A stretch of DNA of 64,000 nucleotides, taken from Candidatus Omnitrophota bacterium (GTDB lineage: Bacteria; Omnitrophota; Gorgyraeia; JAFGHF01). The first letter of the stretch is position 1. Every line of letters starts with the position of its first letter. The stretch is from assembly GCA_016939375.1 (NCBI GenBank), contig JAFGHF010000024.1:9828-73827 (forward strand). The letters are read 5' to 3'. Positions 39,001 to 45,000 of the stretch are shown here, in pieces. Made by a program: the position numbers.

Positions 39001-42000
39001 CTTTTAGCGGGAAAGAAGAAGAAGAGATAAAACAGAAACTCAGCGATCTGGGCTACTTGTAGGCCAAAAGGAGGAGCGGATAGAGATGATAATAATCGTT
39101 TTACCGGCTTATAATGAGAAAAGAGAGATACCGATTTTGCTAAAGCGCATCGATGGTTTTATGAAGACCAACAGGCTTGACTATAAGGTAATAGCGGTCA
39201 ATGACGGCAGTACCGATGGCACGCGAAAGGTAATAGATGACCTAGCGAATCTCTATCCCCTTACTAAAGTGCATTTTGAGAAAAACCTGGGGGTAGGTTC
39301 GGTAGTAAGAACAGGTCTTAAATTGGCGATGGAAATGTCCACAGACGACGAAGACGTGATAGTCACGATGGACGCAGACAATACCCATGACCCCAAGATC
39401 ATAAAGATGATATTACGCAAAATCGAAGAGGGTTATGAAGTGGTTGTGCCCTCGTACTTCTGCTCTGGGGGGATGTTGATAGGCCTCCCCTTTAGAAAGT
39501 ACTTTTTCTCAAGGGTAGCGAATTTTCTCTATCAGGTATTGTTCCCGGTCAAGGGCCTAAGGAGTTATACGGGGTTTTATAAAGGTTACAAGGCAGGGGC
39601 CCTTAAGCTGGCTATGGAAAAATTTAAGGATAAGCTTGTCGAGTCCCAGGGTTTTGCGGCTATGGCGGAACTCTTGATAAAGCTCAGAAGAACCCCTCTT
39701 TTTATCGCCGAGGTCCCCATGATATTGAGATATGACTACAAAGGGGAGAAGAGCAAGCTTAAAGTCTTACCCACGATCAAAGAGCATTTAAGGGTGATCT
39801 CTAAAAACCTTTTCACAAGAGATATAATGACGTGATTATTGCAAGGGTATTGTAGGCTATGATAAATCTGAGTCAGAGAAAAACATTTTTTTGGATAATC
39901 CTATCTTTAGTCATCATCTTAAGGCTTATAAGCCTTGATAAAGGTATAGCCTACGATGAAAAACAGACCTTTTTATACGCAAAAGCGCCGTTTGCGGAGA
40001 AAATGGAACTCATCAGGCACCATTTTAGCAATCCTCCTTTGACGGTCAGCCTGCTTTACTTTTGGATGTTGCCCAGCCAAAATGAGGTTTGGGTCAGGTT
40101 ATATTTTGTACTCTTTGGCGTGGGTCTGTGTATTTTAGTCTATCTTATAGGCAAGGAGTATTTAGGGGATGAATTTGGTCTTTTATCTTTTGCCTTGGCG
40201 GGGTTTTCTCCGCTTTTGATCTGGGCCTCCCAGTATATAAGAGGTTATGTGGATTCGGCTTTCTGGATAGTTTTATCCAGCTTTTTCTTCCTGAAGATGA
40301 TAAAAGGCAGATATACTAGATCGGTCTGCGCCGGATATATCATCTCTTCTGCCTTGGCCTTATATACTTTTTATTTTACCGCTTTGATTTTATTATCCCA
40401 AGGATTATATCTGTTGATATTTTGGTGGCGGGATAGGCCGTTGCTTAAGAGATGGTTATCTTGCACTTGCCTGACGGGGCTTTTGTTTGCCCCCTGGGTC
40501 CCTGTGGCTTTCTCACAGATCGCAATAGTCACAGGCGTGCGTCAGTTGCCATTTAAGGGCTTTCAGATATTGGGTTTGCCAATCGGCATGTTTCTGCGTA
40601 ATTTGATGACCATGGTGGGCATGGAGCCCTACTTTTTATCGGCCGGTGCCAGTGAGATCTTAGATAACAAATTTTTATTATTAAACGTTATTTTGATACT
40701 TTTGATCTTTGTGGCTGTGCTAATATTAGGCTGCCTTTCCTTAAAAAGACTAAACAAGGGGGGACGGGTAGACTTTTGGTTTTTTGTATTTCTTTCGCTG
40801 GGGCCCGTTATTCTGGCCAATACCCTTGGCCGGATGCTGTCTTTGTCGGCCAACGCAAAATATCTAGTGGCCCCTCAGGCGATGTTTATATACTTTTTTG
40901 CCGCGGTTATATACTATTTTATTTTGCAGAGGAAAAAGAAATATGCCTATATCTTTTGTCTATGTCTATTATCCTTATTCCTGTTGCGGCTGCCCAGTGC
41001 CTATACCGCCGAATTTGATTTTAAGGGTGCCCATAGCTTTATTTGCGCAGAATCGCAAGGAAAAGGCTGTATATTCGTCTTTAAAAAAAGATTTGATGAA
41101 TTCGCATTGCCGGCGGTCGATTTAGGGGAATTTTTCCAAAGGGATAAGGCAAGCGGCGAATATCTGTCTTTGCCAGATATAAAAGCTAAAGAGTTAAAAG
41201 AGAGAGCCAGCGGTTGCGCTCGTATTTACCTTTACCTCAGCTTTGGCAGAGATAAAGTTTTCGGGGCTAATAAAGCCGCCAAGGCCTTTTTTAATAGAAA
41301 CTTTGAGCTGGATAAGAAAAAGACTTTTAGGAATATAGAAGTCCTATCATATAAGAAAAGGTGATATGAATATTCATAAACTCAACCCCATTATTTTTAT
41401 ATTAGCCATTAGCCTTTTTTTAAACTTGTTTGGCATAGGCTGGGGTTTGCCTGACAGATGGCATCCTGATGAACACGTAGCCCAGACGCTGCAAATGATC
41501 GGGGAAAGGAAGATAGTCGACTTTTATCACCCCCCATTTTATAAGATTGTTCTAGCTGGGTATATGGTACCGTTTTTGGCCTATTTTGTGCTTACTCAAG
41601 GCCAAGCTGGCGTCAAGCTTGTGAGTTCTTGTTCCTCCTGGATAGGACTTGTCAGGACCTTGCCCGATTTTGCCACAAATATTTATCTTGTGGCCAGGTC
41701 GATGTCAGCGCTATTTGCCGTAGCCTGCGTGTATTTAACACACAGGATAGGAAAGGCCATCTATAATGAAAAAGTGGGTCTTTTCTCCGCCATGACTTTA
41801 GCTGCTACAATGGGATTTGTGGGCCGCAGCCATCTGGCTAAAGAAGGTATCTTTGTTACCTTTTTGGTGCTCCTGGTGCTGCTTCTCTGTATATCAAGTT
41901 TTCAAACCAAGGAGTGGGGCAGGGCCAAAAAATATTTTCTCCTGGCTTGCCTCTTTGGGGGATTTTCCCTGGCCGCTAAATATGACGGCGGAATCGCTGT

Positions 42001-45000
42001 AGTCATTTTAGCCGTCACTTTTGTCTTACTGGTTAAAGAGAAAATGCATAGCAATGAGATAACTGGTAAAGTTAAGACTTCTTTTCAGATCGCTGCTCTT
42101 GGTGTCTTAGTCTATATGCTGGGACTTATATCAGGATGGCCGGGCCTTTTGTCACACTTTAGCCGCTACAAAGCGTCCTTAATGGGAAGCGGCTACGCTG
42201 TTTTTTCGCCCACGACAAACTTTCCGGAGCTTATGGAGCGGTTTTTTGACTTTGCTAAAGTATTGTTGGCCAGCTTTGGCCTTCCTTTCTCGCTTTTGAT
42301 CTTATCAGGTTTGTTTGCTTATATTTTAAAGTTTAAGAAACAACCTAAGGAGATGGTGATGATCATTGTAATGATGGCCTCTTATTTCTTAGTAGCGATA
42401 GCTATTTATAATTATGCCAGCATTAGATTTGTTATCATCTCTTTACCTCTTCTTGCCATTTTTGCAGGTTTAGGGATCTATGCACTATATTCTAAAGTCA
42501 AGTTTCGCCCGATCAGCATTTGCCTGTTTACTATTTTATTTGTCTATTCTCTTGCTTACACCTTAAGAGCAGACTTAGTCTTTGTTAAAAAGGACACCAG
42601 ATATGAATGTAGCCAATGGATAGTTAAAAATATCCCTAAGGGCGCGTCTATCGAGATAACAAGACCGCTATACAATCTCTTTTCGTCATTTATCTTAGAT
42701 GACTATGAGGTCATTTTTTGCGGCACCAGCTCTCAAGATTCTGGGTTCGATGCAGACGGTTTCAGTCTTTTTTATAAACAAGATATAGAAGGCCGCAAAA
42801 AGGCAAAAGAAAAATACTTTGCAAAGTTAAACCAAGGCAATATTTCAGTAGATTATATTATTCACAGCAGTTGGGAAAGCAGATTTCTTGACGAAGGCTT
42901 GGAAGATTTGCAACTTATAAAGGAAGGTAGAAATTTTCTTAAAAATCTATTTGAGGGCAAATTTGATTATCGCTTGCTAAAGACCATCTCTTATCCGGAA
43001 TCCTTGTTTTGGAATCCACGGCCCAACGGCACTTGCCCCACGATATATGTTTTTAAGAAAGAAAAGATATAGATATGGATATGTACGATAAAGGCAGAGT
43101 TAAGATAATATCCTCAGCGGTGCTATTGGGCATTGCCCTGGGGGTCTGTTGGACATTCGCTCAAGACTTCGCCCTGGCCCTTATTTTTTCTTTACTGCTC
43201 ATATGTTTGGTCAGATCATTAAAGATAGAGGATCATCGTTTTATCTTTACCGCTTTTATGGTCGCATTCTGTTTAAAGATAGTATTTATTCTTTTCTACT
43301 ATTACTTTTGGCTCTGCCCAGGCAATATCGGCGTCATCGGCCCAGACGGAGAAGTCTTTTCCCAGCGGGGATGGTATATTTCAAGAGTCTTACTTGGGGA
43401 AGGCTTGGATTCCGTGCCTACGGCTGAACGGCCGTTTCTATTCCAGAGGGCCATAGCGCAGCGTTTTAACTGGCAGCTGCCCCCCGTGGATGTATATCAA
43501 ATAGGGCTGTTTTCCTATCTGATAGGCTATTTTTATTTGATCTTTGGATACAGCAACCTGGCCATAAAGTGCATCAATGCCTTTTTAGGCACATTCTGCG
43601 GAATAATCGCATATTTTATCGCTAGGCCTCTTTTTGGCAAGACCCCGGCACGGATAGCGTTGATCCTGACTATATTTACCCCTACATTGTTCTTATTTTC
43701 TACAACAAGCTTGAGGGATCCCAGCGTAAATGTCTTGTTTTTATCCGTGTTTTGGGCGATCACCAGATTGAATTTAGGCAAAGAGAGCCGCCGAATCCTG
43801 TATTTGCTTATTGTCTTTTCTGTGGCCATGATCTATTTCCTGCGCCAGCCTTATTTCTATCTGTTATCAACGATAGTGGCGCTCGCCCTATTTTTTGATT
43901 TTATCTCCAGTAGAAAGAAGAGGTTTGTCCTTGTCTCGCTGGCATGTATTTTTCTTATCACTACTCCCGTACATGCCAGATACATACATAGGGTATTGCC
44001 TAAATTGAGCGTGCCGCTTATCGTAAAACGCCATTTTGCTTTTATTTTGATGGGTGGCAAAAATACCTATAGGTTTTATCCGCAAAGGTTTTATGTCCCC
44101 AGAGAGGTACCCGATATCAAACATTTGGCAGAGATGACTACTGCTGAGCTTTTAAGCTCTTATACAAAAGGAGTAGCCTATTTTATGTTCCTGCCTTTTC
44201 CTTGGGAATTGCAAAGAAAAGTATCGCTTTTCTTATTGCCGCAGACGTTGGTCTGGTATTTTCTTTTTCCGTTTGTTTTGCTTGGGTCTTTGTTGGCGCT
44301 CAGATACAAGTTTAGGCAGACTTGCTTGGTTATACTGGCACTATTTTTGGCTATTTCCTTTATGGCTTTGGGCGAGGGCAATATCATGGCCGCTATCAGG
44401 CATAGGGATGTGCTATTGCCTTTATTCTTTATATTTGCCTCCGTAGGGCTGGTAAAGGCTTTTGCAAGGTTAGAACCGATAGGTAGGAGTTAAAGATGTG
44501 CGGTTTTGTGGGGTTTGTCGGCCATCATGACGACCGGCTATTAGAAAGGATGAACGCGAGGATCGCTCACCGTGGGCCGGATGATGTCGGTTACTTTTCC
44601 AGGGACAATGTGAATCTGGGACATCGTCGACTCAGTGTACTGGATCTTTCAAGTGCAGGCCACCAGCCTATGTCAAATGAGGATGGGACTATTTGGTTGG
44701 CCTATAATGGAGAGATCTATAATTTTAGACAATTAAGGGAAATATTGCTCAAAAAAGGGCATAAATTCAAATCACGCTCAGATACAGAGACGATCATCCA
44801 TGGATATGAAGAGTGGGGTATTGAGATAATCAAAAAGCTCAACGGTATGTTCGCTTTCGCTATTTATGATTCTGTGAAAAAAAAGGTAATCTTGGCCAGG
44901 GATAGGATCGGTGAGAAACCGCTTTTTTACGCACAGGTAGGCAAACATTTCTATTTCGCCTCGGAAATACAGGCGCTTTTGCAGGTCGATGAGCTCAAGG

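Follow-up and report, generated by a model that had tools for sequence, protein, structure and literature searches.

Systems that combine a GT-A enzyme, a flippase and a GT-C enzyme are widespread, and their GT-C members have often diverged too far to be recognised from sequence (PMC8035078, PMC11127046). Multi-component examples include GtrA-GtrB-GtrC, which carries out O-antigen glucosylation in Salmonella and Shigella, and the CsbB/GtcA/YfhO, GtlA/GtlB and CsdAB/CD/EF systems of Gram-positives (PMC8035078), together with the pentofuranose systems of Citrobacter, in which the GT-C enzyme bears a carbohydrate-binding module (PMC11127046). Here we analysed a gene row at positions 39086-44493 of a 64,000-nucleotide stretch of DNA from a Candidatus Omnitrophota bacterium (contig JAFGHF010000024.1; this whole stretch is called the window), which encodes a putative sugar synthase of family GT2, named GT2a, followed by three membrane proteins, named A, B and C. 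A second synthase-type gene, GT2b, lies further downstream. The five genes are as follows (lengths in amino acids, aa).

39086..39835, + strand, GT2a: soluble polyprenyl-phosphate sugar synthase-like GT-A enzyme (249 aa; PF00535, 5.5e-22)
39859..41364, + strand, A: predicted GT-C glycosyltransferase with about 11 transmembrane helices and a 117-aa alpha/beta C-terminal domain (501 aa)
41366..43072, + strand, B: predicted GT-C glycosyltransferase with about 11 transmembrane helices and a 167-aa C-terminal domain (568 aa)
43075..44493, + strand, C: predicted GT-C glycosyltransferase without a C-terminal domain (472 aa)
49683..50552, + strand, GT2b: membrane-anchored polyprenyl-phosphate sugar synthase-like GT2 (PF00535, 1e-27)

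As in the described three- and multi-component systems, a GT-A polyprenyl-phosphate sugar synthase is here paired with polytopic GT-C proteins that carry an acidic motif in the first loop, and the genes lie in a glycan locus. Further shared traits are GT-C sequences that are highly diverged between systems, C-terminal extracytoplasmic domains on some members, which may bind the acceptor, and the possibility of several GT-A/GT-C pairs per organism. Unlike those systems, the window has three contiguous GT-C genes and a GT2a without a membrane anchor, no GtrA- or MATE-type flippase is recognisable beside the window genes, and the modules are linked to a sugar-nucleotide cassette (WecB-like epimerase, SDR and methyltransferase) and to B12-radical-SAM (S-adenosylmethionine) genes; the host, too, is an uncultured Omnitrophota bacterium. 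We consider it probable, at roughly 78%, that GT2a and GT2b load sugars onto polyprenyl phosphate and that A, B and C transfer these sugars to an extracytoplasmic acceptor. What we describe is a known kind of system in an unusually dense arrangement, and it leaves the working principle of such systems unchanged.

An earlier note on this DNA had read the row as a soluble GT2 followed by three polytopic open reading frames (ORFs) of 501, 568 and 472 aa, and the coordinates, strand and lengths were all borne out. The four genes lie on the + strand with spacings of 23, 1 and 2 nt (GT2a-A, A-B and B-C, respectively). As a scan of the window revealed no terminator-like site in these 1-23 nt gaps, GT2a, A, B and C are almost certainly co-transcribed. 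No operon boundary was obtained from the promoter and terminator scan: promoters across the window were at background level (38 against 34.8 expected), while terminator-like sites, somewhat above expectation (29 against 18.6 ± 5.1), fell outside the gaps of the four genes. In a hydropathy scan, A, B and C each showed 8-9 merged hydrophobic stretches, giving about 9-12 segments or helices when long stretches were split, and the AlphaFold2 models of A and C contain about 11 long helices, in line with the 8-13 transmembrane helices that we took to define a polytopic protein. By hydropathy alone C has about 11-12 transmembrane helices and two large loops (residues 83-161 and 303-382). A C-terminal hydrophilic domain had been attributed to each of the three proteins; A (117 aa) and B (167 aa) do carry one, but C has a tail of only 6 residues after its last hydrophobic segment.

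GT2a and GT2b are the sole GT2 genes of the window, the remaining glycosyltransferases being GT4, and every one of their best solved relatives (DPMS, ArnC and GtrB) is a polyprenyl-phosphate glycosyltransferase. GT2a matched the Dol-P-Man synthase of Pyrococcus best (5mlz, 5.7e-20), followed by ArnC and then GtrB; its residues 3-239 span the whole catalytic domain of 5mlz, with the DAD motif MDADNTHDP aligned with MDADLQHPP. With zero hydrophobic segments in the hydropathy scan and relatives of the DPM1/ArnC/GtrB type, it agrees with its earlier description as a soluble DPM1-like GT2. GT2b has two C-terminal transmembrane segments by hydropathy (216-250 and 255-287), as would be expected of the membrane-anchored, GtrB-like GT2 previously placed at 49683, and its best solved relatives were ArnC (three entries), GtrB and DPMS (1.7e-12 to 2.2e-9). 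Among the NCBIfam models, GT2b matched AglJ over the full length (1.6e-24), then Dol-P-hexose transferase and ArnC, and the top match of GT2a was PgfS, far under its cut-off; all equivalog scores for the two proteins were under their cut-offs. Taken together, the solved relatives support the assignment of GT2a and GT2b as putative polyprenyl-phosphate sugar synthases (DPM1/GtrB/ArnC-type GT2).

Homology and predicted fold support A, B and C as GT-C-fold enzymes of the PMT_2/ArnT-like kind, the class proposed in the earlier note. B and C matched PMT_2 (PF13231) with 30.9 and 33.3 bits, respectively, against a gathering cut-off of 26.1, and the NCBI name of both is already "glycosyltransferase family 39 protein". 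A itself gave no PMT_2 match at E <= 0.01; 38 of the 47 members of its family did match (best E 9.7e-13), so that A, assigned via its family only, appears to be a divergent PMT_2 member. As the window copy escapes the present Pfam and NCBIfam models, the A family could join the GT-C annotation models. When family profiles were compared with solved structures, that of B found STT3A best (2e-4) and ArnT (5ezm) at 1.7e-3, and those of A and C found nothing among Protein Data Bank sequences even at E = 10. By predicted-structure comparison, A and C resemble solved GT-C enzymes, with ArnT among the top structural matches of both (11-14% identity in the structural alignment); with AglB and STT3 they share no more than the general fold. 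The outcome that the note had set against its own proposal was membership of ligase or polymerase families with no conserved motif; among the listed matches of A, B and C there was no ligase, polymerase or SEDS-type protein, and the motif is conserved.

This acidic motif is present in the first loop of all three proteins, as had been proposed (YDEKQTF at residues 32-38 of A, PDEHV at 34-38 of B and PDGEVF at 90-95 of C), with its key acidic residue conserved in homologues. In A, D33 and E34 show no variation across 6 homologues and at least 90% conservation across 47, D35 of B is invariant in 7 homologues, and D91 of C, which falls in the first large loop, is invariant in 12. R128 of A is invariant in its family, each of the three families keeps further invariant Arg, His or Lys residues, and conserved PxPW and GxGN...RHR motifs lie near the C-terminus of C. 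In the model of A, the short helix that comes first after the first transmembrane helix opens with the D33-E34 pair, in the position occupied by the loop-1 catalytic acidic residues of PMT, ArnT and oligosaccharyltransferase (OST) enzymes. Judged by predicted topology, the acidic loop of A, B and C would lie on the extracytoplasmic side, and the adjoining synthase-type GT2 genes point to a lipid-phosphate-linked sugar as the donor.

The three transferases had also been called paralogous. Pairwise BLASTP was non-significant for A-B and A-C and reached 1e-3 for B-C over a C-terminal transmembrane stretch, and close paralogy or a recent tandem duplication was rejected on these grounds. Their kinship is visible by profile comparison only: using family alignments built from database homologues, hhalign gave a probability of 97.6% for A-B (E 3e-12, 403 columns), 95.1% for A-C over 165 columns and 95.7% for B-C over 109 columns. 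An exhaustive profile search of 1.84 billion representative proteins returned 158 relatives of the A family at E <= 1e-30, about 50 of them full-length with the C-terminal domain, and 27,066 relatives of the A profile at E <= 1e-3; A is thus a member of a small subfamily within a very large superfamily. The 47-sequence alignment of A is too diverse for deriving search patterns. The exact sequence of A was not in a collection of 5.8 billion proteins, where the best match was 36% identical. B and C are present there at 100%, from the same NCBI contig of this metagenome-assembled genome (MAG), and the public record may lack a call for A or give it a different start codon.

Scans with the A-family profile found 2 loci on genome contigs and 7 in metagenomes, mostly on contigs of about 2 kb, and the ORFs of 15 related loci (labelled L001 and so on) were compared with all window proteins. 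The window genes that recur beside A, B or C in this comparison, with the protein that precedes GT2a, are listed here.

34549..35688, + strand, WecB-type non-hydrolysing UDP-GlcNAc 2-epimerase (TIGR00236, 284.6 bits against a cut-off of 210)
35685..36677, + strand, SDR sugar-nucleotide epimerase/dehydratase (PF01370/PF16363)
36668..37363, + strand, SAM methyltransferase (PF08241, 2.2e-18)
37392..39062, + strand, alkaline-phosphatase-superfamily protein (Phosphodiest) between the methyltransferase and GT2a (PF01663, 6.3e-43)
44496..46445, + strand, AsnB-like glutamine amidotransferase (PF00733, 1.5e-99; TIGR03108, the XrtA/PEP-CTERM amidotransferase, 553 bits, under the cut-off of 817)
47497..48987, + strand, B12-binding radical SAM enzyme, probable methyltransferase class (PF04055 and PF02310)
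50562..51782, + strand, GT4 glycosyltransferase (PF13439/PF00534)

Three modules emerged. The first consists of the 2-epimerase, the SDR, the methyltransferase, GT2a and A, and recurs in a Planctomycetia MAG (L001/L007), an Omnitrophota MAG (L002/L008) and the metagenome contigs L006/L010 and L013, in all of which a GT2a homologue stands directly 5' of the A homologue. Orthologues of the 2-epimerase (48-69% identical) and of the SDR (62-65%) are found in the same cassette in L001, L002/L008 and L006; SDR orthologues of 43-49% identity directly adjoin A in L005/L011 and L012, and methyltransferase orthologues (45%) lie between the SDR and GT2a in L001 and L002/L008. The SDR gave sub-threshold NCBIfam matches only (LegB-like, UDP-xylose synthase-like and GalE-like). 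The Phosphodiest protein at 37392 is absent from this cassette in L001, L002 and L006.

The second module comprises B with B12-radical-SAM genes and GT2b. With B' and C' for the counterparts of B and C, its gene order is radical SAM, GT2b, methyltransferase, B', C', GT4 in L001; GT2b, radical SAM, B' in L014; and radical SAM, radical SAM, B', C' in L019. In a Desulfomonile MAG (L003/L004) the order is PMT_2 gene, B', GT4. The same Planctomycetia locus, L001, also encodes a methyltransferase-GT4 fusion protein of 649 aa (2234-4183). The third module unites C with the AsnB-like amidotransferase, the GT4 genes at 50562 and 52678 (52678-53778) and a transglutaminase-core gene at 53775 (53775-54542), a set that accompanies C homologues in L002/L008, L016 and L017. 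AsnB-like orthologues (42-44% identical) stand 0-3 genes from the C homologues in these three, and orthologues of the GT4 at 50562 (35-38% identical) follow directly after C' or B' in L002/L008, L003/L004 and L016. Two members of this set are linked by NCBIfam, below cut-off, to families of the XrtA/PEP-CTERM exopolysaccharide system; no exosortase was seen in the window.

Pairwise adjacencies of the GT-C genes occur elsewhere too, with A-B in L009, B-C in L001 and L019, and A-C in L016. The trio in the window is therefore, by gene order, a mosaic of three conserved modules that abut here, and several GT-C genes per locus are normal in these loci. The earlier note, which had considered three such transferases in a row unusual, overstated the case, as several per locus are the rule in the related loci and there are precedents elsewhere. 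In mycobacteria, embC-embA-embB encode three tandem GT-C arabinosyltransferases with decaprenyl-P-arabinose as donor, and the rgtABC genes of Rhizobium are likewise arranged in tandem. The Emb proteins, closely paralogous to one another, are about 1100 aa long and carry large carbohydrate-binding domains, whereas the trio proteins measure 470-570 aa and are unrelated at the BLAST level; the donor synthase is here a GT2 and there a phosphoribosyltransferase. Since synteny pairs GT2a with A and GT2b with B, the picture is not one of a single synthase feeding three paralogues. From gene linkage, the most economical pairing would be GT2a with A and GT2b with B, and GT2b perhaps also serves C via the recurrent B-C pair.

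Enzyme folds and families, motif conservation and gene linkage are what the sequences show; from these we infer donor sugars, synthase partners, membrane topology and acceptor, and propose the following route. GT2a, at the cytoplasmic face, would move a sugar from a nucleotide donor to polyprenyl phosphate; this sugar is probably derived from an N-acetylhexosamine and supplied by the adjoining WecB-like 2-epimerase, SDR and methyltransferase. In parallel, the membrane-anchored GT2b would load a second sugar. A flippase would then bring the lipid-linked sugars to the outer face. There A, B and C would hand them on to periplasmic acceptors, relying on the conserved Asp found where their first extracytoplasmic loop starts. 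What receives the sugars is most probably the polysaccharide that the neighbouring GT4, Wzx-like and sugar-nucleotide genes build; in A and B the C-terminal domain may assist in binding it, as the carbohydrate-binding module of the Citrobacter GT-C suggests by analogy.

Several observations weigh against this route. The structure model of C is of moderate confidence only. The pairing of GT2b with B rests on three loci and that of GT2b with C on two. GT2a lacks a membrane anchor, and no small membrane protein stands out as its partner. The only candidate lipid-linked-sugar flippase in the window is a Wzx-like protein that may be the repeat-unit flippase, and the two intergenic gaps with room for a GtrA-like small ORF, the only ones of that size, contain none. 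Finally, the three (perhaps four) GT-C genes outnumber the two synthase-type GT2 genes, which means that at least one GT-C has to draw on a shared donor or on a different one, such as a polyprenyl-diphosphate-linked glycan. The flippase candidate and the possible fourth GT-C are encoded at these positions.

30463..31956, + strand, Wzx-like MOP-family flippase (PF13440, 1.7e-15; PF01943, 1.5e-12)
26915..28615, + strand, polytopic protein with a 178-aa C-terminal tail (566 aa; hydropathy)

The protein at 26915, which the earlier note had mentioned as a further large polytopic protein, does exist with 566 aa. It has no Pfam or NCBIfam match; hhalign aligned it to the B-family profile at 89.5% over 172 columns of the core transmembrane region and found nothing to the A profile. 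We tentatively regard it, from this alignment, as a fourth GT-C.

The alternative that fares best gives A, B and C a target other than the polysaccharide of the locus: either lipid A or the lipopolysaccharide (LPS) core, the targets of ArnT and RgtA-D, or envelope or S-layer proteins, which they would O-glycosylate in the manner of PMT and Pgf enzymes. We regard this as possible, though clearly the less probable course. The presence of LptD in the same window indicates that the host is diderm, and there are several parallels with the Arn pathway: ArnC, the Und-P-L-Ara4FN synthase, is among the top solved relatives of GT2a and GT2b, ArnT, the lipid A L-Ara4N transferase (GT83), among the top structural matches of A and C, and A and B, like ArnT, are predicted to combine a transmembrane domain with a C-terminal periplasmic domain. 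Related cassettes also carry formyltransferase or deacetylase genes; a formyltransferase (L001) or polysaccharide deacetylase (L002) stands beside GT2a and A, reminiscent of ArnA and ArnD. A precedent comes from Rhizobium, where several ArnT-like galacturonic acid transferases of LPS, rgtA-D, go with the synthase rgtE, a Gram-negative example of one synthase supplying several ArnT-like enzymes. For protein glycosylation, the top NCBIfam match of GT2a, PgfS, is the GT2 of a streptococcal protein-glycosylation system, albeit far under cut-off. However, A, B and C gave no match to the NCBIfam ArnT equivalog model at E <= 0.01, and no ArnA/ArnB/ArnD/ArnE/ArnF set is adjacent to them in the window. 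Unlike PMT proper (GT39, which uses Dol-P-Man made by DPM1), the window proteins showed no PF02366 or MIR match, and at about 500 aa A, B and C fall short of the more than 700 aa of PMTs; PF02366 was touched by only 4 of the 47 A-family members. The context is polysaccharide synthesis rather than lipid A modification: around the genes lie GT4 and Wzx-like genes and many for sugar nucleotides, as is typical in loci for O-antigen or exopolysaccharide.

The mismatch in gene number, with two synthase-type GT2 genes for three or four GT-C genes, could also be read as a sign that at least one of the three, with C and B as the best candidates, is an en-bloc or polymerase-like transferase, OST-like in moving a polyprenyl-diphosphate-linked oligosaccharide onto protein or a growing polymer. 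STT3A was indeed the best match of the B profile among solved structures, C is accompanied by AsnB-like and GT4 genes (the sub-cut-off NCBIfam relatives of the PEP-CTERM/XrtA exopolysaccharide system) and not by a GT2, and no Wzy-like polymerase was recognised in the window. Nevertheless we think it unlikely, given that C has no C-terminal periplasmic domain, that the C-terminal domain of B, as read from its sequence, has no WWDxG-type motif, and that Pfam places B and C in PMT_2 and not in STT3. The WWDxG motif defines STT3, PglB and AglB; neither an STT3 Pfam match nor a WWD motif was found in the A, B and C sequences, which speaks against oligosaccharyltransferases of family GT66. That one of the three is an inactive GT-C-fold scaffold or acceptor-binding partner, like PIG-U/GAB1 in the glycosylphosphatidylinositol transamidase, would suit the speculation that a small GT-C enzyme may depend on a partner to recognise its acceptor (PMC8035078), but is highly improbable in view of the invariant first-loop Asp and further invariant Arg, His or Lys residues in each family and of a structure comparison in which catalytic GT-C enzymes outscored PIG-U and GAB1.

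Transfer of polyprenyl-phosphate-linked sugars by A, B and C thus remains our preferred reading, and the one mildly unexpected feature of the loci concerned is that B12-radical-SAM enzymes are repeatedly linked to them. Genes for B12-binding radical SAM enzymes stand in between the synthase-type GT2 and GT-C genes of almost all related loci, at least 6 of them independent; their positions are as follows.

Window, 47497-48987
L001, 15044-16450
L005, 358-1761 and 2503-3894
L014, 8403-9815
L019, 1682-4563
L016, 3008-5671

In L016 the radical SAM enzyme is fused to a GT4 homologous to the window gene 50562-51782, giving an 887-aa protein. The linkage invites the speculative idea, to which we give little weight, that sugars on this route are radical-modified (C-methylated or rearranged, for example) while lipid-linked or just before loading, so that A, B and C would install unusual branched or methylated sugars outside the cytoplasm. 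We know of no description of such radical tailoring logic for bacterial surface glycans.

To our knowledge, the Omnitrophota lack cultured, genetically tractable members, and none of their surface glycans has been described. The locus provides a concrete parts list for extracytoplasmic glycan tailoring in this phylum, and the mosaic of three modules, each with its own likely partners, guides heterologous reconstitution (GT2a with A; GT2b and the radical SAM enzyme with B).

The window as a whole is a very large O-antigen or exopolysaccharide-type locus. It holds about 58 gene-like ORFs of at least 120 aa, all on the + strand, and its GC skew is positive throughout. LptD (6676-8817) and two GGDEF proteins (3865-6548) lie just upstream of the glycan genes, which also include dTDP-rhamnose-type and UDP-sugar dehydrogenase genes, five GT4 genes, an aminotransferase and acetyltransferases. 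Some 18 kb downstream of A, B and C there are genes for a formyltransferase and a WbmS-like deacetylase. A CysD-like PAPS_reduct protein and a CysN-like GTPase (sulfate activation), with four alkaline-phosphatase/sulfatase-superfamily proteins, are encoded at 21054-23458, 23461-24738, 29256-30476, 33627-34547 and 37392-39062, and these sulfate-activation and phosphatase/sulfatase genes hint at a sulfated or phospho-substituted polysaccharide. The stretch 17799-20052 encodes a 605-aa carbamoyltransferase and, after it, a small SxtJ-like membrane protein; a homologous carbamoyltransferase lies between a GT2 and a PMT-type GT-C in L005. The longest-ORF calls at 46198-47484 and 48828-49670 overlap their upstream genes by 248 and 160 nt, respectively; as the Trm112 domain of the former begins at residue 66 and the methyltransferase domain of the latter near residue 69, the true starts of both are probably later.

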